Shown piece by piece: positions 1-20,143 of a stretch of 64,000 nucleotides of DNA (positions are counted from its first letter, which is position 1; each line of letters begins with the position of its first letter). A program made the position numbers and the translations under genes. The DNA lies in assembly GCA_010093605.1 (NCBI GenBank), contig MU004187.1, forward strand, positions 992,001 through 1,056,000, written 5' to 3'. The notes beneath the pieces were generated by a model. It was given only the letters and a program-made list of their open reading frames with translations. It was not told the origin of the DNA and did not search any database. The stretch comes from Lophium mytilinum. Its lineage: Eukaryota.

Positions 1-820
1 CGCCCTCCAACTCCTCAAGGAAAAACGCGACCCCACTCCCCTGATGGAACGCGCCATAACCGAAGCCTGCGAAGCTGCAGCTGCAAAGAAAGTCCTACTG
101 CTTCCAGGGGCTGAGGAGGAGGTATCTAACGCTGGGATCGAGAAATGGACACGAAGCATGCAAGAGCGCTACAACCGTAACGGCCCCGGCAACGCCATCA
201 TGTACACCACATACCAGTGCTACCTTAAGTCCGCCCACGCCAAGCTCGCCAAAGACCTCGCGGCCGCCCAAGAGGGAGGGTATACCCTCGGCGTGAAGCT
301 TGTCCGCGGCGCGTATCTCAACTCCGAGCCCCGCCACCTCATCTGGGACACAGTAGAGGAGACACACAAGAACTACGACGCTCTCGCCGCGTGTCTGCTC
401 AAGCGCCAGTATGGTCCCGGACTGCAGCCCCTCGAGGGCGCCAGCAGCGACAAATTCCCCCAAATCGACCTCGTCCTCGCGACCCACAACCACGACTCGG
501 TCCGCAAGGCACAAGCAATCCGCAACGAGCAGGCTGCTCGAGGCGAGGAGCGCGTGAAGCTGGCTTACGCGCAGTTGCAGGGCATGGCGGACGAGATCAG
601 CTGCGAGCTGGTGCAGGTGGCCGAGCAGGCGGCGGACAAGGCCCTCGACGCGCCACGGGTGTTCAAATGTATGACATGGGGTACGACGGCTGAGTGTCTG
701 AACTTCTTGCTCCGGCGGGCGGCGGAGAACAAGGACGCTGCGGCGCGGACGGTGGATACGCGGAAGGCTATGGCGAAGGAGCTGTGGAGGAGGACGAGGG
801 GGTTGGTGGGGCTGGCTTAG
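1..820 (+). CDS. put1: Proline dehydrogenase, 3' part (runs off window start)
   Basis: Motifs TYQCYL, LGVKLVRGAYL, ATHN, AQLQGMAD and LLRRAAEN are typical of PRODH/Put1/PrnD. Confidence 0.92.
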   Translation, partial: ALQLLKEKRDPTPLMERAITEACEAAAAKKVLLLPGAEEEVSNAGIEKWTRSMQERYNRNGPGNAIMYTTYQCYLKSAHAKLAKDLAAAQEGGYTLGVKLVRGAYLNSEPRHLIWDTVEETHKNYDALAACLLKRQYGPGLQPLEGASSDKFPQIDLVLATHNHDSVRKAQAIRNEQAARGEERVKLAYAQLQGMADEISCELVQVAEQAADKALDAPRVFKCMTWGTTAECLNFLLRRAAENKDAAARTVDTRKAMAKELWRRTRGLVGLA

Positions 821-3090
821 ATGGCATTTTAGAGGGATGGAGCGGCATTGTTACTCGTTGATGGGTTGATTGTTATGGAGTTTTGCTGTACAGCGTTTTG
901 ATAGATGCATTTTATGATAATGAAGCCCATGTGGCGAGAGGTTCTGATGCCAATACGAAGATGCTGCCGTGCCCCCTGTCGTGGAATTCTCCGGGTGTTT
1001 GCAATTGGTGCAAGGGGAATAGGTCGCTGGGTGATCGATGCTCGTGGGCCTCGTATCGCGAACGTCAGACCTGCATCTCATCATCGATTCTGCGCCTGGA
1101 AGTCCTGCGGTGATGGTCGGATTCATCAGGCAAACTTCTAAAAGCACCCAATTCCCCCAGCCTATGCTGCATATCGGAGATTCTAGCCAACAATGCAAGA
1201 CACTCTTCCCTTCGCATGCCATACTGCTCCTTGACCGCACTTCAGGACTCTAGCCCCTAATATATCGTACTGTTTAAGGAGTTTCAGTTCTCATATCTCT
1301 GAGTTCCTTATGGGAGCTTAAATTTCGGTCATCGGGACCTCTATTAACCTCCCATTCCCAACGTCGGGTGGAAACCGATGGTTTCTGAGAGACACGTTTT
1401 GAAGCCGATTTCATCAGGGCAATTCCTCCCCTCAGCACGTCCCCATGTTGGTTGATAGTTAGATAAAACGAGGCCATCGCCTTTAGAGTCGTGAAGATTT
1501 TTGCTCCCACACCCTACAACGCTGGTGGGCTTCCTGGCGGTGTTGGTGAGCCACGCCGAGGGTACCCAGGTACCCAGAACGCAGATTCAACTCCACATCA
1601 GAGTGAATATGCTTGGAGAATTGTTTCCAGAGAAGGTAGATCGTCAGTTTGGTTTTGTAGTTGAGATGAAGTCCATGGGCTCGCCTTCTCATTGGGTGGA
1701 AGGGGCGGGTTTGCGTCGCTTCCTTTCCTTCAGATCATCATTTCCATCACACCGTCATCTAGAATGCTTCTTCTAGGACTCTGTCCACTCAAGAAGACCT
1801 CAGCTTGATATGCTGACCAAGTCCCACGATGATCCGATCCCTGCTGCCCCTTTTCCCACGGCTGTCGCTCGAGGCTGATGTCAACACCTCCGCCAAGCCC
1901 GCACCTCCTCGAAGCCTCCACCTCCACCATCATCGAAGCCCATCTCGATCTGAACACCTTGACCTCTAGGAGGCCTTCTACCGAATATAACGGATGATTT
2001 GACTTGCTGCACGGCGTGAGGCGGCATCAACACGAAGAGAGCCCGCCTCAGCATACTTGACGCGTCTCCTCATCTTCCCTACGTCAACACCACATCTCTC
2101 CGGACCTCCTCCAGCATCCACATTATACTCGTTGAACCTCAGGAGTCACCTCTGATACACCGAAGAATGTGCAGATACCAAGCCGCCTTAGAGTTTTCGC
2201 AAACCCCATCAATAGTCGACTCTGCTCTTCCCTCGAGGGCCCTTGAGGGCTTCGAAACCAGCACTACTTCGCCGTCCATCTCATACGGAGCCATTGATAT
2301 GCATATGAGGGCGATTTGGCATGCCAGACCAGTTCCTGCGACTTCGGCATGGACCGGTTGCACAATGGTAGCACGAATACACAGACGCACACCGCTCCCC
2401 GACAACCGCTTCTTACCTCGCTCGCGTGATCGTCGAACAAACACAGATGGAGCCCTTGGTCTTCTCAGCAGGTCTAACTCGCAAAGACCTCCAGCTTCTC
2501 CCGGTTTAGGATCGAAAGCCGGATTCTCGACTTGTGGCAATGGGGCACCTGCAGCCCCAAGTCGCTCCTACGGCGACCCACAACTCGATCAGCGGCGTCG
2601 TTAATTCGACGGCCCCCTCATCCAAGAAACGACATCGATCCGTAAGAGCCCTTTAGCCGATGGTACCACTGGCCGATTCACTACCCCGGGACGGTGATAT
2701 TGGTGGCAATGCAGCACTACGCAAGGGGCCACCAGCCACAGGCAGCCTGCATCCTGTTGTGGCATGTATCTTTACGGGTTTCTTGAGACAACGGTTTCTT
2801 CTTCTGGCAATGCAACGCATAGTCTGTCGACAACTTCGTCCTCATAGGCAAGCTGGTCGGCTGTTTTCTGGCAGCAAGCCTCGGGAAAGTCTCCTTGTGA
2901 AGGAAAACACACCAGCTAGCCAAAATCGACAACCGTCTTGCTGAAGCATATTCCAAGAAAATATTGGACGCTGCCCGATATCCAGCTGTGAACTCCCAAG
3001 GAGCCCATGAGATAGGAATACGCTCCAGCCAAAGCATTTGTTGACTGGCCATAGTACCCTTCAAGCCCCAGCTGCGTGCCTTGGGGACGA

Positions 3091-3152
3091 ACGTCCATGC
3101 GTCGAAGCAAATTCTCAAGGCACGTCCATGCGTCGAAGCAAATTCTCAAGGC
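3091..3152. repeat. Perfect 31-bp tandem duplication
   Basis: ACGTCCATGCGTCGAAGCAAATTCTCAAGGC occurs at 3091 and 3122. Confidence 0.9.
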
Positions 3153-3689
3153 TTCATCGAGGGTACTGTCCACCCAAACACCCGCTTCCCCCCAATCCAA
3201 ACCGAGACTATCGGCAGTAACCACCGCAGGAACTCCTGACTGGTATCTCATATACAACACAACCGCCTGGCCATAAATATAGCCCGATATGCTAGCCAGG
3301 CAGGATCTTGTCCTGCCCAACCGCTTCCGCTTGATAATTTTAGGGCCTCCGTCTCCGGGTCGAAGACCTCTGCGTCGAACCAACTTCTCAATCCTCTATC
3401 CAGGGTACTGTCCTCCCAACCACCCCTTCCCCTCAATTCAAACTGATACGATCAGCTGACTATACTAAACATGACGCGACTCCGAGGCCACAGCCACACT
3501 CCGGTGCGAAGGCCAGGCAGGATGCTAATCCTGCCCGACCTGCGTCCACTCGGAAACAAAAATATCGTTCAATACATCGACAATGCAGGACATCACTCTG
3601 CCGATCGACATCCACTCAAACGTTCCGGGAACACACAACTACCCTTCGATACGCAAGCATCGTAAATCCACTCCGCCCGACGGCGATTA

Positions 3690-4165
3690 CTCGACGATCC
3701 TGGAGACAAACATTACCCTCCTATTATGGCCAGACTGGGGAGCACCCAGCCCGATCGCATCCGCTCGACGCCCATCAAGATGCATAAAGGTCCTTCCGAT
3801 ATACTGGCCAGACAGGATGTTATCCCGCCCAACCGCGTCTACTCGACGACCCTTGAGACACATTAAGGCCCTTCTATATACTCGCCAGACAGAAAAGGGT
3901 CCCGCCCAACCGCGTCCACTCGAGGATCCTGGAGACACATTAAGGCCCTTCTATATACTGGCCAGACAGAAAAGGGTCCCGCCCAACCGCGTCCACTCGA
4001 GGATCCTGGAGACACATAAAGGCCCCTCCGTATATTGGCCAGACAGGATATAATCCTGCCCAACCGCGTCAACTCGACGACCTTGAGACACATAAAGGCT
4101 CTTTGTGTATACTGGCCAGACTGGATGTGATTCCCGCCCGACCGAGTCCGCTCAACGATCTGGAA
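3690..4165. repeat. 77-bp minisatellite, ~6 copies
   Basis: GCCAGAC anchor at 3729, 3807, 3884, 3961, 4038, 4115. The central copies are near-identical, and related fragments lie at 3295 and 3512. Confidence 0.9.
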
Positions 4166-4304
4166 AACAAATGGTCAATTCACTGCTGTCGTGTTAGTAC
4201 AAGATCTCAATTCACTGCTATTGTGTTAGTGCCTTGGCGCTAAATACTGTTCCGTTAGACACAAGGAGGTCCCGCCTTTGCTGCGCAGAGCCTCAATTAA
4301 AACA

Positions 4305-4525
4305 TTCCCTGGACTCCGGCACCCTGATTCGCCCCAAGAAGCGTCCGCTCGAAGTCCAGCCCACATCCCTGGATCGCTCGTGACACGTCCCGCGATCACT
4401 TCAGGCCCAGGGAAGGGGTTCCCTTCAAGAAGGTATGCCAATGGACAGATCGGATACTTGAAGAATTCTTAGACTCCGGCAACAGGATTCGCCCCAAGGC
4501 ACGCCCTCTGGGAGTCCAGTCCCAG
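4305..4525. repeat. Degenerate direct duplication, 160-bp offset
   Basis: GACTCCGGCA..GATTCGCCCCAAG..AGTCCAG at 4312 and 4472. Confidence 0.75.
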
Positions 4526-4687
4526 GTTGGGACTCCCTCTGAGTAGCTATACCATGGACAAATCAACTATAAACGTTGGAACTATTGGACCGGAAAGGGA
4601 AATTGGGCCGAAGACGACAACGATAGAAACTCTTAAACCTACCTGAATGGAGCCAGCGGCAACCATCCTACTGAGAAAGAAGACTTT

Positions 4688-6198
4688 GGGTTACTTACTT
4701 AGGTTCCCAAGCCCGAGATACGACACCGACAGGAGCTTAAAATATGCTTTGGGAATACGATTGGCAAAATCCCGTGGACAAAGGAGACTCGAGGGGCACT
4801 TTGAGTGGGTTCCCAAGCCCGAGACGGCATAGCCAGACGAACTTGAAACCCGCTACGGGAGGGCGCCATTGGCAATACCCCTTCGAGACTGAGGGTCACT
4901 TCGACTGGGTTCCCAAGCCCAAGGAATTTACCGTATCCGGGGCTGCGGCCGGACCGAGAAACAGATGGCGAAATATTTGAGGATGGGCACACCTACCGTT
5001 CCGAGGAGAGGACTATCAGCCGCATTCCTACTAACGGAAGAGATTTAGGGTCACTTTAATTGGGTTCCCAAGCCCGCGAATAGTAGACTTCTAGCCTCAA
5101 TGCGTAGGACGTTATGGAAAAATCACTTCTAGTTCTTGGAGACATAGCTGGAAAAGACGACCATTCCCAATTGCATATCGAAGACAACGGACTCACCTTT
5201 TTTGACTCGACCATTATGCGATGCGAGCGATACCGGAGAAAGCTTACGTAACGGGCTTCGATAAGATGACCTGCCTGAACGGACTGACGCAGAAACAACG
5301 ACTCGCTGATGCAAATATGCACTCGAGAAGCGATCTTTGAGATTACCTGCCGAGGGCAACATGGAAATATGTTGACGAATCCGATAGAATGACTCATTTT
5401 TATGGGAGACTTCGACACAAGAGATGAACGGGGCACTTTCGAATGGGTTCCCAAGCCCGTAAGATCACCACGCCTGCGGAGTACCTTGGCAAGACTTGAG
5501 TATGCAGCGCTGTTGAATATTGAAAATGACTGCAAGAGCTAAGATGGCCCTGGAATTTGAGTACATGGAGACATAGAGCCTACCTTGGAAGTTTCGAAGA
5601 GTTGAGAAGCGCAAAATCTCGGCGGACTCGATAAGAAACCGTGGGAAGAGTCCGTTGGAGACGGCTGATGGGGTTTAGACGGCTAGAAGACGTCTGACTT
5701 TTGGACTGTGCCGGGAACAAGCTTGACAACTTGGAGGACTTGGCTAGGAGACATGTGCCTGAGAGCACTTCGCCCCCATCAATGGCTTGCGGACTCGAGA
5801 CATTTGACAAGAAGACACCTCCTAGACGGGACCTTAACCGAAAATAACGGCCTGTCAACTCGAAAGGTCGAGTTCAACAAGACATCTACAGCGATACGCG
5901 CAATGAAACCAATACAAAGGAATCCAGACGAGAATCAATACCTGAGACGGTTCTTCTTGAAGAAAACAATCGAATTGACCGAAGATTGGGGTCCTTCGGA
6001 CGGGTTCCCAAGCCCGCGTTCTCCGGTTAGTTGACTGGCCAGAAGCATATGCTTGATTAAAGAAACAGAGGGGTCGCTTCGAACGGGTTCCTAAGCCCAT
6101 ATTCATTAAGGATGGCCCAGCATACGATACCAGTACCAAGAGAGAGAAGAGACGGCCCACCAGATCCTGAGGATACTTCGGATGGGTTCTCAAGTCCG
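4688..6198 (+). repeat. Interspersed array of 8 copies of a ~29-nt motif, consensus GGGKCACTTYGRAYGGGTTCCCAAGCCCG
   Basis: Copies end at 4715, 4821, 4921, 5076, 5459, 6016, 6099 and 6198, separated by largely unique sequence. Confidence 0.9.
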
Positions 6199-6794
6199 TG
6201 ATGCTGAGGATTGCGACAATCGTGTACGAGGAGAAACCACCTACCGGATACGTACCTTGCTATATGGTATTTCGCCTCGAAGAAGCTGCCTCGTTTTCGA
6301 AGTTCAATCGACGTTGATAAGGAAAGGAGAGAAGGTGATTGACTTGCGTTTCGTGTGACTAGGGAAAATGTACCTGGTTGACGAAGGGATTGAGAAAGAG
6401 ATGGAACTCATTCAGATTGTCAGGATGAAGCGCGAGTGCCCGAATCACAGGGTGGATGATCAAGAAAGAGGTTCGGTCTTTACGAAAAGTCACAAAAGAC
6501 TTCAGTCGAAGACCATATCCAACAGACCAGGCCGAAGAAAGCTAATTGATGATGAGGAAATGGATGGGATGAAAATAAACGAAATGGTGTGGGACGATGA
6601 AATGACCTTCCACGCTGAATTATGATATTGAAATGGATGGGATTGAAAAGAGATGAGAATAAGAGAATATTAGATTCAGAGGAGATGGGACCGAGAAGAA
6701 ATGGAGTCTAAGAGAGACTGCAAATGTGCAAATTTCATGTCGAGAGAAAAAGGAGTTGAGAAGAGATGAACCTGGGACGAGAAAGAGTTGAGAA

Positions 6795-6905
6795 GGGAGG
6801 TGACGGAGAAGAGAGGTGAAAGAGAGGTGACGGAGGAGAGAAGTGACGGAGGAGAGAAGTGACGGTGGAGAGAGGTGACGGTGGAGAGAGGTGACGGAGA
6901 AGAGA
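6795..6905. repeat. 16-bp GA-rich minisatellite (AGAGARGTGACGGWGG)
   Basis: GTGACGG at 6800, 6827, 6843, 6859, 6875 and 6891, inside a purine-rich tract at ~6300-7120. Confidence 0.85.
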
Positions 6906-8179
6906 TGTGCCGGGAAAGAGATGGAATCGAGAAGAGATGGCAAGGCCGAAAATCGAGGGAAGTTGAAACTTGCGATACCAGAGAAGCGAAAGCGACAACT
7001 CCTGAAACTCAAGGTCAATGATGAGTGGCTTCCAGGAAAGGTCCGAGACTAGGGCACGACACGCTGCCCGAGATTGCAAGTCTGAGATGAGAGAGGAGAG
7101 AAAAAAGAAAGAAGAACAAGATCCACTAACCTGGGACATCCCTTTGACCTACTGTGGGACATCCACCTACCTGAGTAGAATTCGCTGGTATGCTCATGAT
7201 ATCGAGGAAGATCGAGCTCATCGCCTGTAATTGAGTATTGGCAGACATCTCTTTATCTCGCAAAACCTCCTATGATTCCTGAGTATCCGTAAGCTTGGAT
7301 CGACCGGTCAAGTGTGGCATTACATACTCCACCAGGCTTTCGGCCGCTCCTCCTTTCCGGTCCAGCCATGTGATCCGAATGGTGTTTTATGTGCGCCGGG
7401 GACAGCGAGTCCAACTCCCTGAAAGAAAGGCGACCTGTCCACTTGACAGTAGTGGAGGATTTCAACAAGTAGAGCATGTTCTCATAGTCGCATTGTAGCG
7501 ACTTTCAGCTGGGTCATTTCTGGGAGATAAATGCTCAAAGTCGAAACGTGCTGTCTTAGACGGCTCGAGCAACATCATGGCGGGTGTAGTAACGCTCCTC
7601 CGCGCAAAGATTGCCGGATCGCGACTAAGAAACTTCGAGCCTTCGATGGACAGCGGTTTCGTAAAACGATCGGCTTCGGGGAAAGACTGGTTGTGTTTCG
7701 ACGTGGCTGTCGCGATTCGCCTTGGCGGGGCTGGCGACTGGGGAGGCCAGGCCAAGGTCGTGATGTCTTCCGCATATACGTGTGCTTCGACTATGTCGAC
7801 ACACTCTGGTTTATCTACTGCCAAGGCTATCAGCAAGATGTCTGGATGCGACGGAGACGCATTGCGAAAGCGCAGGCCATACCCGGCCAGGCTAAATCGA
7901 TCCGCGACGGAAGGGTAGATGAGCCAGGACCGGATAAGATTAGGGACGCTTACTCAACTGTTCCAGAATTGCGATGAGGTTTGATGCCTTGTTTGCCGAT
8001 TGTCGGTATCGGTCTGGCTTGGAGAATGGCTGGCGGAGATGTGATGAAGGTGCCGTAGGTCCTGGCATCGCTGCGCGCAAGGAAACGACGATAAGCCTGG
8101 CTCCGACCGACTTGGACGATGAGGAGTGTAAACGAAGCCTCATTCAGTTTCGTTCGGATCTCTGTTGTGGCCGAGTGAC

Positions 8180-8770
8180 TCTGACCGTGGTATTAAGCTT
8201 CGCAGTCCTCCGCAGTCCTCCGCAGCGGTGGTATCGCGACAGGCGAATAGATCGGTATAAGGCTTGCCCAGTCCGCCTGAACAATTCAAGAGGCACAAGA
8301 AGACTTGCCATGCTCGAAGTAGAGACGTCCTGGCTACAGGTCACCTTTGCCGCGGTGTTGAGCCGGACAAGATCTACAAACCCCGCGCCAGCGGCATCCG
8401 CCTGCTGGCGAGGTTCGTAAAGTAGAGGCTTGCAGCTGCCAGTCTGAACGATTTGGCGATGGGGGAGAGACTCACGATGCTTGAAGCGGATGCCTCCTGC
8501 GCCAGATGGCCTTGACCGTGGTGTTGAACCGCCGGAGGAGATTCGCAAACCCTGGCGCCAGCGGCATCCGCGCGCTGGCGGAGTCATGAAGCAGAAGCTT
8601 GGCCCTATCAGTCTAGGTGATGTGAAGAGAGGAGAGAGACTCACGATGTGAGAGGCAGATACCTGCTAGGGCCAGATACCCTTGGCCGCGGTGTTGAGCC
8701 TGAAGAGATTCGCAAGCCCCACGCCAGCGGCCTGCGCATGTTGGCGGAGTTGCGAAGCTGAGGCTTGCTC
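8180..8770. repeat. Degenerate 165-170 bp tandem repeat, ~4 copies, three with a CGCCAGC..GYTGGCG inverted repeat
   Basis: GGTRTTRA anchor at 8189, 8354, 8520, 8690. GGAGAGACTCACGATG occurs at ~8464 and ~8632. Inverted repeats lie at 8386-8410, 8556-8580 and 8722-8746. Confidence 0.8.
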
Positions 8771-9629
8771 GTGAGTTTCAGCTCCCTTAAATGCTTCATG
8801 TCCGTTTCCGAGGCCAGCGCTTAGTGTTTGGGTGTACGCGGGTCGCTCTCGTGGGTCAGGCGAAGCCGGTCGCCGCCATGAGCCTTGCGGCATCGCATGA
8901 ACGAAGGGGACGAGGGTGGGGCGCTGAGAAGCTTAGAAGCAAATACGAGGATGAGGATGTCGATGTCTACCGCCTCGCGAAGGTGAGGGAGTCGATGCTG
9001 CAAGACGTTGTTGGTGTTGTAGGATGAGGGGGTGAGGAGACGGGCGGCGAGGTTTTGACGAAGGCGCGCTTGGTGTTGAGCCCAACAACTCCATAGCGAC
9101 AGCCGCCGACCCCTGAGAATAGGCCCCCGGAATGAGGTTCAGGACGTCGGAGAAGTACTCTTATGTTGCTATCATCATGCGAAAGCAGCTCTGAGGATCT
9201 GGGTTTGCTCCGGCTACTCCGAAGGCCATTCCGGTGTCCGTGGAGCGATCCACAGGCTTTTTCCGCGCGGAAGTAAGGCCGCAACCGCCATAGCTGCTGG
9301 GACGGCTCTCAGTATTGCTCACAGGCTGCGGAAAGGCGATGGCTATGAAGCGCTGGTTCTGGGAAATGCAGAAAGGAGAGGGTCATGCCAGCCCTGCAAG
9401 AATGCGGGCACACAAGGGGGGGCAACGTTTGCGCTCTGAAAAGCGGCATAATGAACCACGCGGTGTCTCAGCAAACATGCCAAATCAATACAGGCACCGG
9501 GACTTAGCATTACGCGTTTCCTCATGGAGCAGCTTTGCTCGGGGCTGCGTGGGGCTGCGCGGGAGTCTTTTAAAGCATAACACGTGCAGGAAGCCGGTAT
9601 GCGACCATCCTTTCAAGAGAGCGACATCA

Positions 9630-10075
9630 CGCAGGCATTCTATCGGACACTAGAAACAGGCTAATTGGCATTCGCGAAGGCTGCATCTTCTTTGAGACCT
9701 CAAGGGGTATTTCAAGATACATATCACGTGTGCAGCGAGATGTTTACGGAAGCCCGATATAGGGAAGCGCAGGATGCGGCCTTCGCTCATCTGGTTTGTC
9801 TTTGTGAAGGCATTCGATCAGGCGTTGGGAATCAGCTCATTGGCTTCGGCAAATGCTACATGTTGCCTTGAAAATTACTCCCGGGGGGTTTTTCAAGACA
9901 TTGTCTCACAAGCCAGTAGGAGAACACGGGAAGGTCGATACTTATGTCCTTCTCTTGTGTACAGCTTCACTCATACAAGGTCCTAGGCACGATGAAAAAC
10001 ATGAGACTGCATTCCGCTCATCCTGCGCGAGAGTCCAGGGGTATCCCAGGGACTCTCTCACGTGGCCAGCGAGAA
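9630..10075. repeat. Highly degenerate ~165-180 bp repeat, 2-3 copies
   Basis: AGGCATTC at 9633/9808, GGGGT.TTTCAAGA at ~9704/~9885, and GGGGTAT..TCACGTG..CAGCGAGA at 9704/10038 (offset 334). Confidence 0.55.
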
Positions 10076-11749
10076 TAATGTGGTAAGCTGATTTTGGCTT
10101 CTTAATGTTGACGTTTGGCATTAGATTCGAATCACAGGGGCGCGAAGAAGGTAAGATATAACGAAGATGCATTCAGGACGTTAGTATACCTAGCAGGTTT
10201 TCAGACGTCCAAACGCCAAGAAACGTAGTTCAGCCCCTATATATGCCAAGCATGCCTGGGAAAAACAAAAGCCTGCCCGCTCTGAACTCCTTTCTCTCCA
10301 CCGCTATCAAGCATCATCGGCTTCAAACTGCATACAATCCTCAATGATCTTGGCTTTTGATCAAGCTCTCTGTTACCCCTTTTGACGGTTGGGGACTGAG
10401 AGCCTATCGGTAAGCTGTCAGGCTTCATTCATACTCACTCCTAGATGCAGGTCACAAGGAACCCCAAAACAACAAGCAAATCACTTGTAATACTCCCTGC
10501 AGGGCAACCCAGGCTTTATCTTTTCGGGTGTCTTCCGGGAAATTACACGAAATCAAGATACCCCCAACGCCGGCGCCCAAGCGCAATGAAACCTGTTCTG
10601 GGACGCATATTAGCTGCTGCTGCGGAAAGTATAGCCAAAACCTAGGGCTTTGCAGGCCCTAGAGATGGGGCGCGCGAATCAGGGGCTTGATACCGACAAA
10701 CTTGCCCAAGCCAAATGGTACTAGGAGCTCTCCCCCCCCTTTCCCCCCTGCCCAAAAATTATCATCACCGTCGTCTTCTTCTCCCTCCTCTCGTCGTCTT
10801 CGTCTTGGTCGTCTTCGGGGGCTATTCGTCCTCGTCCTCGTCCTGCTCTGCTTGTCAGCCATGCTCTAGCCGTCTCATATTCCCATTCCCTCAGGTATGT
10901 TCGTAGGCCCGACGGCTTAGATCGGTCGGTATAGAGGCGTCAATGGGAGGGTTCTTACACGGCAAGTCCAGCGCCTGATGCGGTGGCGACCGCCGGCCGT
11001 GAAGCTAGGGAAAAAATCAGCTTGCTGCAAATTACGTTCTGGCCAAGTTGAACTTACACCGACTTCCCCGCTCGGAGGCGGAGCCAACACCAGTAGATGA
11101 GGCCCGCGATCTTGTTATGCCCCCGTTAGTCTCGCGATCTACATATGCCTGATCAAGGGCTTACGCCGACAGCGCAAATCGCAGCCGCGATCCCGACCCA
11201 TTGCGGGAAGAACCACCACGGCAGAGTCATGGCGGCAAGGTGGAAGGCGAGGTAAGGGTTCGAGGGTTCTCCTAGCTCTTGGTCGGCGGTGCTGCTGGTG
11301 TCGTATGGGGTGCCTATCTTGGTGGTGATGTGGCGCAGGGGTTCTGAGGCTCTCTTTCTGCAGCGTTTCGGGCATTATCAAAAGCTGTGACGCCAAGATT
11401 ATTCCTTGGCGAGGTTTTGTGTCTCCTTCTTGTTGTTCCTCAAGCTCTCTCCCCCAACCTCCTCCACCCCCCATCTCACCATCCTACCTCGACTCTATAT
11501 CCATCAAATATAAGCTGCGCTTCTTCTGAGCCTCATACTCAAGCTCCTCCTGCTTTGCTGCAACCTCCTTGCCCCTATTTCCGAGAGATCTCGGTGGGCA
11601 GCTGCGCTCTCTCCGCCGTCCACCAGCCTCCCTCAAGCCTCGCAGCTCTCTCGCAGTCAACACCTTGTCTGCAGCTGCCCTCAGCTCTCTCCTCCATCAG
11701 CTGATGATTGCCTCCTTCTCTGCGGTCTCGCAAGCCTTCGCCCCCGGCG

Positions 11750-12250
11750 TCGGCGGCGTCGCAGGCGTCGCAGACTCGTCTTGCCCTTCCGCCAGCCTGA
11801 CGAGTCTCCTCCGACGGCGTCAGCTGCCTGAACCTCTATCCGGCGTCCGCAGCTTCCTGCTCTAGCAGCTAGCAAGGGCACCTGCTTCACAAGCTTCTTC
11901 ACGACCTCGCAAACCATCACACTCATCCCCAGCAGCGTCGGAGACGCATCCTGCTCCTATGACCTGCCCCTCCACCGACCTCCGACAGTCTCAGCTGCTT
12001 CACCAAACCTCTACCTACCCAGGCTGCCTTTGACTCTCAAGATCTTGAGCTTACCTTGTTTCTACTGCCGAGATCTTCGCACGGCATCACACCCGCCTTC
12101 AGCACCGTAGAAGATGCGTTTTACTCGTACGACCTACCCCACCGTCTACCTCCAACGGCCTCAGCTGCTTCACCAAATCTATATCTGCTCAGACTGCCTT
12201 CGGCTATCAAGATCGTCAGCTTGTCAAGCATCTCCTGCAGAGATCCTCGC
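11750..12250. repeat. Degenerate 170-bp tandem repeat, ~3 copies
   Basis: CCTCCRAC.G..TCAGCTGC with TCAGCTGC at 11820, 11991 and 12161. Segments 11931-12055 and 12101-12225 align along their length. Confidence 0.8.
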
Positions 12251-12985
12251 CAAGCGTCGCCGTCACATTCGGCATCCTCGCATCGCGCTACTGGCAACAC
12301 GAACCACCCCGCTTAGTGTCTTCGGCAGCCTCATCTACATAGCCAAGCAGTCGTCGTCGCAATGCGCTTCGAGGTGACAAACCTATGTTCTCCCTGCCAA
12401 CGTCGTAGCCTGCCGTCGCCGACGACATCCAGATTCACCACCAACGGCGTCACGTGGTCTTCACCCCTATGGGAAGACCTTCGTCAGACACCCCTACATG
12501 ACTAGCTGCTCATCAAAACGTCTTCGAGCGTGGCTTCATTCAGGCGCTCTCCCTTATATAGTAAGCTTAGCAATCTCCAAATCTGCTACATGACTGTCGA
12601 CTAACCTACTTTACAGTGTCTCGGCGGCATGCTCCATGCCCACCACAGCCTCGTCAGCAACATCATCATCAATCTCCAACCCATCTGAGCCACTCTCGCC
12701 TTGCTCTTTGGCTGCATTGGCCAACTCTTCTAGTCCCCTCGAGCTTATTCACCACAAGAGCGAGACGATGTCACGTCCAAGCAGGCCCAACTCCCATCTC
12801 AAACACCATGTTGGTGGCGTTCCGACCCACTTGCGAGCAGCCTCATGTTGCTATATCTCTCGCCAGCGTTGCGCCTTTTCGAGTCAGCGTTGCAGACCCC
12901 TCAACAAGCCTCTGCTGCTCGCCATCCAAATCAAGACACAAGGCCACCTCACTGCCACCAACACAAAGACACAGAGGAAGATTCA

Positions 12986-13014
12986 CGGGCTTGGGAACCC
13001 GTCCAAAGTACCCC
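12986..13014 (-). repeat. Single inverted copy of the 29-nt motif
   Basis: The reverse complement reads GGGGTACTTTGGACGGGTTCCCAAGCCCG, matching the 4688-6198 consensus. Confidence 0.9.
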
Positions 13015-13069
13015 ACCCCCTATTCTTATTCAGCGTCGTCGTTTTTGTTTGCTCTTCTTTCCCTATTTG

Positions 13070-13740
13070 TATCTGGGCGGGCTGGCCCCGCAACGGGCTG
13101 GCACCGTGGGTTAGGGGTGGGCTCATTCTTACCCATTCTTACCCATTTTTATTCATTCTTACCCATTCCTACCCATTTCCTATTCTTGTCTGGACGCCTG
13201 CTGGCCGGGAGGGAGGGTTCGTGGGTATTCTATCCCCCATTCTTATCCATTTCTACCCATTGTTACCACGTGTGGCATTTGTTTTCCTATTTTACCCCCC
13301 ATTTTATCCCCATTCTTTTCCTTATTCTTATCTTTCTGGGCGGGCTGGCCCCGCATGCCTGGCGGGCCAGGAAGGCGGGCTTGTGGGTATCATTATCCCC
13401 TATTTTTACCCATTTTTACTGGTTGCCCGCGGGCGGGAGGGAGGGATCGTGGGTATTCTATCCCCCATTCTTATCCATTTTTACCCATTGTTACCGCGTG
13501 TGGCGTTTGTTTTCCCATTTTACCCCCCATTGTATCCCCATTCTTTCCTTATTCTTATCTTTCTGGGCGGGCGGGTCCCGCATGCCCGGCGGGGCCGGGA
13601 GGGTGGGATTGGGGCATTCTTATCCCCTATTTTTATCCATTTTTACCGGTTGCCTGCGGGCGGGCGGGAGGGCTTGGGGCTAGTTTATCCCCTATTCTTA
13701 CCCATTTTTACCCGTTCTTATCCATTTTTATTCATTTTTA
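13070..13740. repeat. Compound repeat of alternating G-run blocks and TTA(C/T)CCATT blocks, higher-order unit ~228 bp
   Basis: Segments at ~13190/13420/13647 align, as do ~13075/13338/13565. Confidence 0.85.
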
Positions 13741-13849
13741 GTTGCTGTAGGATAATGTATGATACGTGTAAGATAACAAACTGTGCCTTAATGCTTGAGT
13801 GATGTTGTGAGTGCTAAGTTGAGAGAGTGGAGTGAGGGTTTTGGAGTTG

Positions 13850-14410
13850 GGGTTGTGATGGCAGGGGTGGGTCGCGTGGGTGCAGGATTTTGGGGTGGAT
13901 GCCGACGTCTTGACGAGCTAGATTAGGTTGATGAGTTTAAGGAAGGCTTTACATGTGCAAGGCAGGAGACCGTCCAGTTCATGCGGCCTTGATTATGGGT
14001 TTGAATATAGCTTGGCAATGGCAGGGGCGGATCACGTGTAGATGAGAGCTCAGGGGAGGATGTAAAGGTCTTGAGGGGTCAGATTAGACGGATGGATTCT
14101 GGAAGGGCATTCCACGTCCGAAGTAATATGAGGGCTGATTTGTATGACTTGAATAACGGTTTTGAAGAGAGCTTGATAATGGCAGGGGCGGGTCACGTGA
14201 GTTTGAGAATCTCGGAGCAAATGTAAAGTATCGAGGGGCTAGATTGAACGGATGGAGTTATGAACTATTTCACGCCTACACATCACTACCAACGCTAGAT
14301 TGCACCACCTCCATGAGGATTTTGAAGACGGCTTAGTAATGGCAGGGGCGGATCACGTGGCTACAAGAATCTGGGGAGGATGTCATGCTCGAGGAGGCAA
14401 TTCGGAACGG
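13850..14410. repeat. 160-bp degenerate tandem repeat, 4 copies, conserved core ATGGCAGGGGYGGRTCRCGTG
   Basis: Core starts at 13858, 14018, 14179 and 14339. Confidence 0.88.
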
Positions 14411-14680
14411 CTTGCTGCTTCGAGCGCGCGCGGCCCAAGCTCCCTCCAGCTTCCCCACACTCATGCATGTGGAGACCTGGAGCTCCAGGTGCAGCACATA
14501 AGAGCCTGCGATCGCCGCAAATTGTTTTTTCCCCAGTTTCTGCTGCTCCCGTCTTCTGCTCTGCGACCTGCTGCTCTCTACAAAACTGCGTTTCGTGTGC
14601 AATTGAACCGCCAAAGCTTCTTCATTCGAGATTGCTTCCTCTTGTTTTCTTGAGAACTCAGCCATAGTGTCAAAAGCAAG

Positions 14681-15984
14681 ATGTCTAAACCAATCCTCCT
14701 CCACCTCGGCGACGATATCAAATGGAACCATGAGCTGTACAAGCAGCTGCAGTCGAAGTTTACTATTAAGCGCAGCTATAGTATGAATCGGGCCGATTTT
14801 AGCAAGGCGCTCAAGGCGAACCAGTTTGGGGATTTCGTGGCTATGTATCGGCCGTTTTGGAATACGGGCGGCGAGATGGGCAACTGGGACGCTGAATTGA
14901 TGTGAGTACATGGTGTTTGGGTTGGTAGAGGGAAATTCACGTGCTAATGGGTGGATGTAGTTCGCTACTACCGAAGAGTTGTAAGATTTATGCTAGTGCT
15001 GGAGCTGGGTTCGATTGGGTTGATACGAAGAGGTTGGCTGAGTCTGGTAGGTTGTTCTCCTAAGTTATTCTCCTTGCTCTTGGTTATGTCAAGTCCGGAA
15101 TCTCGGGTACTTTTTCATTCTATCTCCAATTTCCACGTCTCAACCTTTAAGAGCTCCAAAACACCATACCTCAAAACCCTGCCTTCCTCTCATTCATTAT
15201 TCCCCCCTAAAATCCAACAAAGACCTCCACTAACCCCAACACCCCCACAGGCATAATCTACTGCAACGCCGCCGCCGCCTGCACTGAATCCGTCGCCGAC
15301 GCCGGCATCTGGCTCATCCTCTCCACCTTCCGCCTCTTCTCCTGGTCCGCCACCGCCGCGCACTCCACCTCCATCCCCGCCTTCCAAGACGCCAACCGCA
15401 ACATCGCCGCCGTGACGCACAACCCCAACAACTTCACCCTCGGCATCATCGGCCTAGGCAAGATCGGCTACCGCATCGCCCAAAAAGCGCACGACTCCTT
15501 CGACATGAAGATCCTCTACAACGACATCCGCCGCATGCCCAAAGACATCGAAGACACGATCAGCGCAACATACTTCGAGAGCCTGGATGCTATGCTGCCC
15601 GAGGCGGACTGCGTGCTCGTGGCGACGCCGTTCGCGGGCGATAAGCTGATGGATGCGCCGCATTTTCGCAAGATGAAGAAGGGGGCGCGGTTGGTGAATA
15701 TCGCGCGCGGGAAGCTGATTGACGAGCCGGCGTTGGTGGAGGCGCTGGAGAGCGGGCAGCTGGGGGCCGCGGGGCTGGATGTGCATTATGACGAGCCGAA
15801 GGTGGATGCGAAGCTGGCGGGAATGCGGAATGTGCAGTTGTTGGCGCATACGGCGGGGGCGTCGATAGAGAGCCATATTGGGTTTGAGCGGCTGGGGATG
15901 GAGAATGTGATTGGGTTTTTGGAGACGGGGAAGGCGGTGACGCCGGTGAATTTGCAGTGGATTGGGGAGAAGGCGAGGCTTTGA
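14681..15984 (+). CDS. D-isomer-specific 2-hydroxyacid dehydrogenase (glyoxylate reductase-like), 3 exons, C-terminal ARL (possible PTS1)
   Basis: Motifs ASAGAGFD, GIIGLGKIG, LVNIARG, AGLDV..DEP and LAHTA. Introns at ~14902-14960 and ~15047-15250. Confidence 0.9.
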
Positions 15985-16287
15985 GGGGTGAGATGGGGAG
16001 GTGGGGTGGGAAAGGGGCATGGGACAGGGGTTGGATCTTGTGTTGAGGGAATTGGCGTTGTGGTTCTGAAAATGGAACATGTTTGAGGCCAGTCTTACAG
16101 TGGTGAGATTGTTGAATGCATTTCAATATCCATCCACTGATATACAGTGATCTCAACACCCATGCACTGATACACAGCACAACACCTTACCCCTGTAATC
16201 CACCCCCGAAATCACGCCCAGTACTCCGCTCCCCTACTCCAACCATTCGCCAATACCCCCTCCACCCAGGACGCTGTCATCCCCCCA

Positions 16288-17221
16288 TCAAACACCCCCA
16301 TCAACCCCCTCCTTCTCCACCCTCCACCCCAAATGCTTCGTAACCAACCACCCCATATTCTGCGCCTCCCCTTCCTCCTCAAGCGCATCTCCCAACGCCA
16401 CCCACGGGTGCTTCCGCCGCTTATAGCACATCTTCCCCCCATGCTCATGATACACACACGTCCCGTCGTCCCACTGATAGGGTGCCCAAGCCGGCCGCCG
16501 CTGCCCCTCCTCCTCCCGTGCCTTCAACGTCATAAATTGGAACGACAGCGCGTAGAGGAAGTCATCGGGCAGCAGTTCCCGCTTCTCCGCGCTGATCCAG
16601 TCCGGCTTGCCCGCCGCGCGGTAGTGGTCGACCAGCAGGCGGCGCACGGGCGCGCTCGGCGGCGTGTTCTCGTAGATGTAGATGAGCACGGCGGGGTTGC
16701 GCTTGAAGAACTCCATTTCTTCGAGCTCGGTGGCCTCGGCGTCTGTAGTTTCGGGGGAGGATGGGCCGTCGGCGGTTGTTGTTGAAGGGCTCGGCGAGGA
16801 AGAGGGGGGAGGGGGTGCTTGCCCGATCTTGTAGCCGGATGTGGGTGGTGGGCCGGCCCGCGGCTTGATGGAGGTCGGGTGGTGTTTGTTGAACTTCTCG
16901 ATCATGGCGTCAATGACTGTGTCTTTGAAGTCGGAGTCTTGCAGCTTTTCTCCCAAGACGTAGGCGCAGGCGAGGAGCTCCCATTCGTCGGAGGACGAGT
17001 CGGATTTGCTGGCGAGTAGGCCGGTGTATAGCCAGGTGCGGTAGAGGGCGAAGGTGGAGGGAGCGTCGTCGGGCAGCGGGACGATGCGTGATTCTGCTTC
17101 AGCCCAGGCGCCGTTCATGGCGTTGGCGAAGAAGGGGCTGCGGGAGCAGACGAGAGTTTCATGGACGGAGAAGTCGGTTGGGGGAGATCCGACGCGGACG
17201 GTGATGGAGAGGAGACCGAGT
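16288..17221 (-). CDS. BTB/POZ-domain protein (first exon not resolved)
   Basis: The frame extends upstream of the listed ORF: ITVRVG..FSVHETLVCSRSPFFANAMNGAWAEAESRIVPLPDD..F..Y..WLY, then YVLGEKLQD..FKD. Acceptor-like CTCAG at ~17222. Confidence 0.8.
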
Positions 17222-18241
17222 CTGAGAGGTATGAGTAAAAGCTAGGGAGTGTTGTATCTTGCTTGAATCTAGGCTGGACGATATGATAAGAGATGGAAGG
17301 AAGATGAACTAGACCACAGGGACGGAAAACATGAATTTCTGCATCCCAAATCGGAGGATTTGAGAAGAGACTGAATGAAATCGGACTGGACCAAGTACAA
17401 GAGACAGAAAACAGTGAATATAACACAAACCAGCTGCAATCGGGAACTTACGGTGGTCCTTCATCGATCCCAATCCTCACACCGCTCCATCTCTGCGCAT
17501 TCCGCCTGTCCTGGTTCTCCTTTGCTGTCTTCTCCGATTCCTCAAACAGCACCCGATTAGCCTCGGGCTTGGATACTATTCACCACATCAGCTTTCCCAT
17601 CCTTCTCAATCCGCGCCGGAATAATTTACTCACTGTCAACCAGCGACCGACGGTGACCCCTCGGAGGCCGCGCCATCATGTTTGCTGTGCGCGCAGCAAT
17701 GATTGCGGACGGCCGTGGTGTTTATGCGGCGGTGGAGTCCGGAGCTCTGCTCACTCTCCGGAGCCATCTAGGCGTCATAGGGCTGAGCATGGGGTGAGGT
17801 TAGATCACGTGACCGTCGGCATAACCGACTAAGAAGGGCCGATTAAGGGCCGTGTATTCATCCGTTGTTTCCGAATATCTTCGTCCGCACGCCTTTGGGA
17901 AACGCGAGATGCCACTTGCATGCCACATTGAAGAGCCTGGATGACCAATGACGGATCGTGTTGACGCCGAGCGCATAGTGAAGGCGGTTGAAATTGCATT
18001 AGGCTTCTCCATAGACGTATGTTTTCCAGCTAACTATCGATATGCAAGGGTAAATTTGTTAGAGCATTTCAAAGCCATATCGAGGGGCTTGGATGCCTTG
18101 GAAGATGTATATAAAGACTAAGAGCCCAGGTACTGAAAGGCTTATCCGGGCGGGCTATCAATCACTTTCATAGTCAATATCAATCTCAATTCCAGTCTCA
18201 TCTCAGCGCAGTCTCCATCTTCTTCCTCCGTCTTCTTCAAA

Positions 18242-19297
18242 ATGGGCTGGGCATCCCACTTCATCTACTCCCAATTCTTCCTCACCCCTCCCCTCCCCAT
18301 CACCCCCCTCAACTCCCAAGTCTACATCATCACCGGCTCCAACACCGGCCTCGGCCTCGCCGCCGCCGCCCACCTCGCCCGCCTCAACTGCGCCCTCATC
18401 ATCCTCGCCGTCCGCTCCGAAGCCCGCGGCCGCGCCGCCGTCACCAGCCTCGTCGCCAGCACCGGCCGCCCCGCTTCCTCTTTCGCCGTCTGGCCACTCG
18501 ACCTCTCCTCCTTCGCCTCCGTCCGCGCGTTCGGGGAGCGCGTCGCCGGAATGGAGCGCCTGGATGCGGTTATCCAGAACGCGGGCGTGCTGAGGGAAGA
18601 CTGGGTGGAGGCGGAGGGGATGGAGAGCACGATTACCATCAACAGCGTCGGCGCCGTGCTCTTTGGTATGCTTATGCTGCCGAAGCTGCGGGAGAGCGCG
18701 CGCAAGACGGGGAAGATGGGCCGGTTGAGTTTCGTTGGGAGCGATTTGCAGATGCAGGCGAAGTTCACGGAGAATCAGGGGCGGGAGGAAGCTGGGTTGA
18801 GCGTGCTACAAGCGCTAGGGGATGAGAAGAAGGCGAATATGGGGGATCGGTAAGACGGATTTCACCTTATCGATCGAATGTGAAGGATGCTAAAGAGAAT
18901 CAGATATTCGACGAGCAAATTGCTGCTTATTCTTTCCGTGCGCGCCCTTGCGCAGCAGAGCCCGCTGACGCCGGAGTCTAATGTTCTGATCAACCTGGTT
19001 TCGCCGGGGGCGTGCCAGAGCGATCTCTTCCGCAGTGAACCGTCGTTTGGAATGAAGATTGTGGTGTTTTTGTTGAACCATATTATAGGCCGCCGGACAG
19101 ATGTGGGGGCTAGGGTGCTTGTGAATGGTGCGAGTCCGGAGCTGGGCGCAGAGGCGCATGGAGCGTTCATCTGGGATGATATCAGGAGTCCTGGTGGGCT
19201 TGCTGAGGGCTCTAAGGGCAAGGCACTGCAGGAAGAGTGGCACAAAGAGCTCTGGGCCAAATTGGAGTCGATACATCCGGGCGTAACGCAGTTCTAG
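18242..19297 (+). CDS. Short-chain dehydrogenase/reductase (retinol dehydrogenase/WWOX-like), 2 exons
   Basis: Motifs TGSNTGLG, LDLSSFASV, NAG, YSTSK and VSPG. Intron at ~18850-18903. Confidence 0.9.
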
Positions 19298-20143
19298 AAG
19301 TTGGCAGTTCAGGCCTTTCTGATAGCCTTACGATTAGGGAGTGCAAATACCCTATATCTTGAATCGTGCAATTTTGATATATTTCTTTCGCATGTCAAAG
19401 TCATTTTCAGCTCTTACTGTCTCAACTGTTTGATGACATCCTCCTTGGTTTCCCATACATATGTAACCCACGTCTGACGTTATCAGACACTTCAAAATCC
19501 CCGGCTTTAACGCGCTCGAATGCATGTCAGCTGTCTAAATGCCCCCGAAAGCGTTCTATCTAGAAGTCTGTAAAGTACATGTGTTACACCGCGTCTCCAG
19601 AATATGACACCAATTCTAGCTTCTAGTTTCCCATGCACAACACCTCCAACGGTATCTAACGCAAGTCAAGGTACTCCAAATCGGCCGGTCCAGCTTTACT
19701 ATCCCTAAATCCCATACCCGCTTCTACAATTCCATCGTCACGTAATCCACCCCTTACTATCGCCACATTGTCACCAGGAACATCTTCCCATTCACCCTAT
19801 TCCGCGTTCACCGCACCAAGCCTCCCCTCACAGCTCCTCAAACCCGCCTCCATCACGTCTCAAACAAATCGCAGCAGTAGACAGAATAACCAGTTTTATA
19901 GAGAGGTGTGTATATACATCATCCCAAGCGCCAGAAACTCGATGGGTATTGCCAAAACAAAACAAAAAGTACAACTTGGAGAATATCTCCAAACGCCACG
20001 TGCAAGCATAATAGTACAATCCCAGACGTCCGTCAATAACATCTAACACAACAAGCACGCTAACACCCACTCTCCAGAGCCTCCTACGCTCCCACCCATA
20101 ATCCATACCTGAGAAGAACTACGTCTCGTTAATTCGTCCTCCA

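Follow-up and report, generated by a model that had tools for sequence, protein, structure and literature searches.

A candidate recognition platform in an apparent long, spliced non-coding transcript of the fungus Lophium mytilinum

Between two dehydrogenase genes, a 64,000-nucleotide stretch of Lophium mytilinum DNA (GenBank assembly GCA_010093605.1, contig MU004187.1, positions 992,001 to 1,056,000 of the forward strand; hereafter the window, numbered from its first letter) carries an array of short, strongly conserved sequence boxes separated by mostly unrelated spacers. The window is nuclear DNA of a filamentous ascomycete, coding for HET, Fungal_trans, Zn_clus, and other domains. On one side of the array is a proline dehydrogenase gene, whose end is near 820-908, and on the other a gene for a D-isomer-specific 2-hydroxyacid dehydrogenase, with its ATG at 14682; these nearest coding genes are 3.8 kb and 8.5 kb away from it. 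We identified no recognisable coding gene in the 14 kb between the two: none of the 112 stop-to-stop open reading frames (ORFs) of at least 65 amino acids between 900 and 14900 scores above the Pfam cut-off, and an earlier, sequence-only reading of this DNA saw no effector gene adjacent to the array. That reading also placed the array in a gene desert, a description that fits the lack of recognisable coding genes but is not supported for transcripts, because splice joints were recovered here from one public sequencing run. Rfam gave no match at the gathering score in the window and none at E<=1 in 900-14700, a scan of 4000-7000 gave only two chance-level rows (E 6.5 and 7.2), and ARAGORN predicted no tRNA or tmRNA gene in the window; a likeness of the box to a tRNA T-arm, an RNA polymerase III B box, or 5S rRNA is thus unsupported by either program. 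Between 3 and 14.4 kb the DNA is a mosaic of tandemly duplicated segments, whose units measure 10, 16, 31, 77, 160, 170, and 227 nt.

The sequence-only reading described eight copies of a 29-nt motif, and all eight are where it placed them; scans with the consensus and with its core agree. The 29-nt consensus, with at most 3 mismatches, matches 6 sites in the window, with 0.00 expected from 100 shuffles, and the 14-nt core GGGTTCCCAAGCCC, with at most 2 mismatches, matches 12 sites, compared with a mean of 0.57 in shuffles. Nine of these 12 are true copies of the box. Eight are on the + strand, within 4677-6201, with cores starting at 4701, 4807, 4907, 5062, 5445, 6002, 6085, and 6184; the ninth, with its core at 12987-13000 on the - strand, had been overlooked (Table 1). 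The three remaining sites (16480, 22577, and 40914) carry 2 mismatches each and look like chance matches. A profile hidden Markov model (HMM) and a covariance model (filters off), both built from the nine copies and run over the window, separate the same nine from everything else: the HMM finds them at E <= 3e-7 with the next best match at E 2.5, and the covariance model scores them at 38.9-49.9 bits with the next best at 11 bits. Neither model finds weaker copies of the box in the 64 kb, and the scan that the sequence-only reading had proposed, run here on this window, thus yields nine copies and nothing intermediate. The core-to-core spacings are 106, 100, 155, 383, 557, 83, and 99 nt, as previously listed, with 99 the sole multiple of 3, and the distances between neighbouring boxes are irregular, ranging from 54 to 528 nt. 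A RAGAY motif lies within 17 nt 5' of the box in six of the eight array copies, in line with the earlier statement that the box is usually preceded by it; the probability for a random 17-nt window of the same exon is 0.14, and by our own arithmetic the enrichment corresponds to ~2e-4.

Table 1. Copies of the box and features of the apparent transcript. Positions are those of the window; joints are given as the last and first positions connected in contigs of run X3.
Feature	Position	Strand	Remarks
Box copy 1	4677..4718	+	Core AGGTTCCCAAGCCC, 13/14; 38.9 bits, nhmmer E 2.9e-7
Box copy 2	4783..4824	+	Core 14/14
Box copy 3	4883..4924	+	Core 14/14
Box copy 4	5038..5079	+	Core 14/14
Box copy 5	5421..5462	+	Core 14/14; 5' half with 1 extra base
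Box copy 6	5978..6019	+	Core 14/14; nearest to the inverted ninth copy, 93% over 30 nt
Box copy 7	6061..6102	+	1 core change, CCC to CCT in the proposed hairpin loop; outer pair C-A
Box copy 8	6160..6201	+	Most diverged; 2 core changes, one giving a G.U pair on the + strand
Box copy 9	12983..13024	-	Solitary, inverted; core 14/14
Intron, 51 nt	3404..3455	+	GT..AG (cut +1); joint 3403>3455
Intron, 66 nt	4193..4258	+	GT..AG, GTTAGT...TTAG; joint 4192>4259; directly 5' of the array exon
Intron, 83 nt	9596..9679	+	GT..AG (cut +1); joint 9595>9679
Intron, 53 nt	9932..9986	+	GT..AG (cut +2); joint 9931>9985
Apparent single exon, 5.3 kb	4259..9597	+	One X3 contig, 0 differences, 0 gaps; whole array inside
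Span of X3 contigs linked by GT..AG joints	1095..11528	+	Apparently one long non-coding transcript or several overlapping ones

Anchoring the nine copies on the core without gaps gives per-column mean pairwise identities of 0.24 for the far flanks, 0.55 for the 15 nt that precede the core, 0.94 for the core itself, and 0.37 for the 7 nt that follow it. The edges of the conserved box are sharp, with identity rising from 0.24 to 0.94 within a few bases, and the box, ~30-40 nt in all, consists of AGAY, a few bases, GGGKCACTTYGRAY, and then the almost invariant GGGTTCCCAAGCCC(G). Copy 1 is degenerate, and its 5' half matches the consensus poorly; outside 28-34 nt, the ninth copy shares no sequence with the array. 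Most spacers are no more similar to one another than shuffled sequence is, as the sequence-only reading held, but those of units 1-3 retain some similarity and so are not wholly unique: their local alignment scores are 12-17, and three of the four exceed the 99th percentile of the shuffles (12-13). Units 1 and 2 have spacers that are ~60% alike (our estimate from the alignment), and share 17 identical nucleotides of the box, GGTTCCCAAGCCCGAGA.

The residual similarity of units 1-3 points to the array being a decayed ~100-nt tandem duplication in which the box alone has been preserved. The array is no tandem satellite in its present state, as was previously noted; Tandem Repeats Finder (TRF; minimum score 30) reports 23 rows in 1-16000 and none in 4677-6201. 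Since 17 box nucleotides are identical beside spacers that have diverged so far, uniform neutral decay does not explain the box. We argue that its conservation probably reflects selection, on the grounds of the sharp step in identity, the survival of the lone ninth copy, and an identical core next to spacers that are ~40% diverged. Within the 557-nt spacer, a stretch at 5757..5790 (+) that includes CTGAGAGCACTTCG resembles by eye the 5' half of the box with the core gone; it scores below the thresholds of both models, and is possibly a decayed unit, in which case units can die. We also observed GGAGAC(A) at 5138, 5567, 5657, 5747, and 5797 (+), in the two long spacers and at intervals that are partly 90 nt; the same letters begin several box units and end the 77-nt repeats further upstream, and their recurrence may mark additional decayed units.

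The array has a repeat-and-spacer look, with a partly palindromic repeat of ~29 nt, and in this it resembles clustered regularly interspaced short palindromic repeats (CRISPR). We rejected this identification, as the host DNA is fungal and nuclear, with spliceosomal GT..AG introns as well as the HET, Fungal_trans, and Zn_clus domains; no ORF among the 112 searched is cas-like; distances between copies are uneven (83-557); identity in the 5' half of the box reaches only 0.55 and the repeats are 64-100% alike; and spacers 1-3 are related. Repeat-induced point mutation (RIP) leaves a high TpA/ApT ratio, a low (CpA+TpG)/(ApC+GpT) ratio, and a low GC content. In 4600-6300 these values are 0.78, 1.02, and 0.498, which by the usual thresholds is no RIP signature, and we therefore discarded both a RIP-mutated repeat and the earlier suggestion that RIP could mimic covariation in the box.

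Evidence for transcription comes from contigs of three public runs, which we placed on 1-20000; two of these (X1 and X2) are DNA, and the third (X3) is guessed to be RNA. X1 and X2 cover the whole interval without joints. X3 has nine joints with GT..AG or CT..AC borders that are absent from X1 and X2, and some of these coincide with introns of the flanking coding genes, so X3 behaves as RNA. Four of the joints are intergenic, all of them GT..AG on the + strand and located between 3403 and 9985, and one X3 contig extends from the acceptor of the second of these introns to the donor of the third with no internal joint. From the continuity of this contig we infer that the exon's interior is part of the same RNA as the splice joints, and we conclude that a long exon of a spliced non-coding transcript appears to carry the array on its sense strand. 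The spliced model of 1095-11528 is 10.2 kb long, and its longest ATG-initiated ORF has 156 codons' worth of amino acids (156 aa). ORFs that contain boxes have codon-usage scores of -0.14 to 0.13, compared with 0.11-0.28 for the window's real exons and a median of -0.01 for all 50 + strand ORFs. X3 depth is 0 in the bin 12007-12673, a value that, being one figure per contig, says nothing on expression level or on where a transcript ends.

We considered whether the boxes are themselves splice sites; AG precedes the box in six of the nine copies and GT follows it in three, which is inconsistent, and no X3 joint falls inside the array. Near the start of the array exon, an X3 contig links ~255 nt that are absent from the window to position 4364, just after the CAG at 4357-4359. 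The 30 letters of this loose end do not occur in the window, and the join could be either an alternative acceptor served by an exon that lies upstream, beyond the window, or a chimera produced in assembly.

The 3' half of the box can form a small hairpin, YGGGUU-CCCA-AGCCCR, in which 52 of the 54 stem cells pair across the nine copies (96.3%). The outer pair is UG in five copies, CG in two, UA in one, and CA in one; three of the six pairs are invariant, and none is altered on both sides. The pair types listed in the sequence-only reading are correct, including the single stem mismatch in copy 1 and the single G.U pair in copy 8. It had likewise recognised that a G.U pair on the + strand becomes a mismatch on the - strand, and this applies to all nine copies: the U.G pair at columns 28/35 is present in every one and would be A.C on the other strand, making the pairing specific to the + strand. 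A rival helix between GGG (columns 11-13) and the CCC of the loop (columns 30-32) was rejected, as it shows no double change in register; a double change arises only when the helix is slid by one column, so that what looks like GAG/CTC compensation in copy 8 hinges on the register chosen. A further small helix, GAGG/CUUY, precedes the hairpin in four of the nine copies by eye, with a loop of varying length.

We favour the reading that the array is a multivalent recognition platform in a long non-coding RNA (lncRNA), to which we assign a probability of roughly 0.4. A ~100-nt unit would have been duplicated in tandem, with selection keeping the ~30-40-nt box while the spacers drifted to random and at least one unit seemingly lost its box. 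The eight sense boxes in one exon would then serve as repeated recognition sites on the RNA, to which several copies of one sequence-specific partner, either a protein or a complementary RNA, would bind together, and the small hairpin may present the recognition site. The sequence-only reading had offered a processed non-coding RNA array, protein-binding sites, or recombination sites; the box-and-spacer layout it described is real, and the location of the array on the sense strand of an apparent RNA makes a role at the RNA level possible. The box itself also argues for such a role, since its conserved 29-42 nt lack symmetry and are more than is usual for a single transcription-factor site, and its pairing on the + strand only is in keeping with it. 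A fuller version is possible and less probable: a spliced ascomycete non-coding RNA of more than 10 kb, in whose 5.3-kb exon the eight selected boxes dock one RNA-binding protein or a complementary RNA, the latter perhaps originating from the inverted ninth copy, 7 kb distant. In this version, tandem duplication and decay would have produced, in a fungus, an equivalent of the principle seen in the Xist A-repeat or NORAD. We infer, in proposing either version, that conservation reflects selection, that selection acts on RNA and not on DNA, and that binding is multivalent.

Several observations weigh against an RNA platform. X3 is only guessed to be RNA, and an unspliced contig such as the one covering the array could in principle be DNA. 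The ninth copy is inverted, 7 kb away, and outside the X3 contigs with + strand joints, and would be in the sense orientation only if the - strand is transcribed at that place. No statistic supports the proposed hairpin. Covariation of the stem, which the sequence-only reading had raised, was not found: among the nine copies there are 0 double changes, and 463 of 500 shuffles reach both the score (0.125) and the percentage paired. Covariation is undetectable in these columns because they are nearly invariant. The RNAalifold consensus hairpin is weak, its energy being -5.5 kcal/mol and its covariation term -0.11; copies folded within 53-nt contexts are no more stable than their shuffles (z -0.80 to +0.84); and the hairpin is in the minimum-energy fold of only five of the nine copies. 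The hairpin can form and is strand-specific, which makes it compatible with the data and not supported beyond that. Other decayed tandem arrays nearby have cores resembling DNA sites and favour a DNA-level reading, and all the conservation evidence comes from paralogues within one genome.

Repeat-bearing lncRNAs that work as multivalent platforms include the mammalian Xist A-repeat, NORAD, and fission-yeast meiRNA. The A-repeat has ~8 conserved cores, each 24-30 nt long and set apart by spacers that vary, in the sense orientation within a long non-coding RNA that is spliced, and the array is alike in each of these respects: it appears to lie in a sense exon of a non-coding transcript, as seen in the run guessed to be RNA, and its core identity is 0.94 against 0.24 in the flanks. 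The A-repeat cores are proposed to form small hairpins and to recruit protein multivalently, whereas hairpin and binding are both only proposed for the array. The two have no sequence relation, the host here is a fungus, and the spacers are longer, irregular (54-528 nt), and not U-rich. The units of NORAD and the determinant of selective removal (DSR) clusters of meiRNA present many copies of a short element as a decoy or scaffold for one RNA-binding protein, in a layout like that of the array; however, those elements are 6-8 nt long with known binding proteins, whereas the element here is 14-42 nt with a putative partner. In the parts of the literature available to us, we found no repeat- or hairpin-bearing lncRNA of filamentous fungi comparable to the array, and the motif string of the box was not found in the papers searched for it. 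We considered and set aside the HAX1 lncRNA of Trichoderma reesei, which, as far as the portion of its description that we saw indicates, belongs to another locus with other flanking genes.

The alternative that survives best, and which we regard as unlikely, is a homotypic cluster of DNA-binding sites, bound as double-stranded DNA by a sequence-specific protein, such as a dimer on the imperfect palindrome GGGTT-N4-AGCCC with a flanking contact. The long intergenic region would then be a large cis-regulatory region grown by tandem duplication, and the transcript a by-product. An inverted ninth copy with unrelated flanks fits this explanation, since a DNA site is indifferent to orientation, as do the neighbouring CATTCY and TCACGTG arrays, whose cores are like known sites, and an RNA hairpin that lacks thermodynamic or covariation support. 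There is precedent in the CENP-B box of alpha satellite and in homotypic transcription-factor clusters, where, as here, an intact box sits in diverging tandem units. Those sites act as DNA, independent of orientation and transcription, whereas the units of the array have decayed past TRF detection and lie in an exon. Against DNA sites, the conserved 29-42 nt are asymmetric and long for one site; the palindrome is imperfect at one and the same position in all nine copies, something not expected of a symmetric dimer site; and the array is embedded within a 5.3-kb exon, with the nearest coding genes 3.8 kb and 8.5 kb away. A zinc-cluster site of the type CGG-N10-CCG, to which the proline dehydrogenase neighbour drew our attention, was rejected as well: both triplets are present in only two of the nine copies, and the invariant bases are the inner ones.

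It is improbable that the array is a functionless, decaying minisatellite in which the box owes its uniformity to short-tract gene conversion, a mutational cold spot, or the youth of its copies. The abundance of tandem duplications between 3 and 14.4 kb would suit such an origin, as would the apparent loss of the box from at least one unit (5757-5790), and box conservation has been judged within one genome. However, conversion or age would hardly account for a rise in identity from 0.24 to 0.94 over a few bases, and neither the contrast between ~60% alike spacers and 17 identical box bases in units 1-2 nor the survival of the ninth copy alone in unrelated sequence is expected of a minisatellite.

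We give little credence to the proposal that an antisense or small RNA, transcribed from the + strand at 12986-13014, base-pairs with the boxes, or that the array is cut into small RNAs at set positions. This + strand segment could pair with the boxes, its complementarity to copy 6 being 93% over 30 nt, and perfectly kept runs of 14-17 nt are typical of nucleic-acid pairing; the hairpins, however, are far too short to be Dicer-type precursors, and no Rfam family matches. Less credible still is an origin of the box from a mobile element with many copies in the genome, of which it would be one end or a terminal or subterminal repeat, for example. The box does occur in both orientations, but no Pfam domain, transposase-like or otherwise, is encoded by the ORFs of at least 65 aa in 900-14900, the copies have neither terminal inverted repeats nor common flanks around them, and no further copy is present in the other 50 kb of the window; a search for target-site duplications or element ends around the copies gave none that are consistent. 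A metagenome scan with CTTYNNNYGGGTTCCCAAGCCC returned 27 loci, most with 55-73% GC and each with a single copy of the core. None of the 27 has the GGG 5' half or a second copy, leaving no array-like or full-box match, and we treated them as chance or unrelated sequence.

Hardly credible is a coding role, in which the box would encode a peptide G-x-F-x-[WR]-V-P-K-P in short ORFs on one RNA or in a dead repeat-protein gene: one frame does serve seven of the nine copies, and copy 5 as well after a 1-nt insertion, with Gly written as GGG, GGT, GGC, and GGA and Phe as TTT and TTC, but the variable columns fall 4/3/4 on codon positions 1/2/3 (seven copies without indels), Val, Lys, and the last Pro have invariant third positions though the spacers are saturated, an in-frame ATG precedes the box in only three of the nine copies, copies 4, 8, and 9 have a stop 0-2 codons ahead of the Gly and copy 1 has TAG for Trp, the frames differ between copies, and codon-usage scores are mostly below those of real exons. 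A set of 5.8 billion proteins contains none with three 5-residue words of ORF 4741-4977, which spans two boxes, and, as it lacks this ORF itself, is silent on relatives. ORFs of the minus strand that cross boxes were also dismissed, as they read the box in three different frames. In tarsal-less/polished rice, an apparently non-coding RNA carries a short peptide motif in several small ORFs; the array differs in that start codons are lacking in six of nine copies, stops abut the motif, and there is no third-position excess. The constraint is on nucleotides and not on a peptide, and the earlier statement that this is no protein repeat stands, given the absence of a common frame, the stops beside the box, and the 4/3/4 distribution of variable columns.

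The array would belong to one of two known types, either a repeat-bearing lncRNA or a homotypic site array, as judged from one genome and with a putative partner. The previous description is confirmed and extended here, the ninth copy, the tandem origin, and the apparent transcription of the array being new. We know of almost no functional sequence elements in fungal lncRNAs. The paralogous copies show which 14-40 bases are constrained, and the box could be used as bait and the array as a mutable handle. If the RNA reading is true, animals and fission yeast are not alone in having multivalent lncRNA repeat platforms; if the boxes are instead DNA sites, the 14 kb form a fungal regulatory region of unusual size, composed of several homotypic site arrays.

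Further tandem repeats surround the boxes. The exon between the first two introns contains a 77-nt unit array of 4.9 copies (3783-4164, +; 83% matches), and the exon that holds the boxes also contains 8.6 copies of the purine-rich 16-nt unit GAGAAGAGAGGTGACG (6790-6939, +). At 13050-13760 (+), runs of the 10-nt unit CCCATTCTTA lie inside 227-nt repeats (2.3 copies, 87% matches). CATTCY, which we take to be a TEA/ATTS (AbaA/Tec1-type) site, occurs nine times on the + strand and not at all on the - strand of this 710-nt segment, compared with 42 occurrences per strand in the whole window. Four 160-nt repeats at 13819-14375 (+), 300-860 nt 5' of the 2-hydroxyacid dehydrogenase ATG, have diverged flanks (64-74% identity) and a core, AATGGCAGGGGCGGRTCACGTG, that is intact in three and diverged in the first; judged by these copies, they read as a second example of a conserved core within decayed tandem units. 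The E-box-like palindrome TCACGTG, which forms part of this core, is found in 13800-14400 three times when scored on the + strand and once on the -.

Two other features emerged from placing the contigs. All three runs have loose contig ends at 18260, 18299, 18497, and 18533, within a short-chain dehydrogenase ORF (18137-18853), which suggests that a second, related copy of this stretch is present elsewhere in the genome. In DNA run X2, and not in X1, there are loose ends just before 6730 and 8064 whose letters resemble the end of a loxP-type site with CCTCAGC after it, and the X2 assembly graph branches at 6730-6759 and 8064-8093; this suggests that the X2 material contains a laboratory construct with arms from this region.

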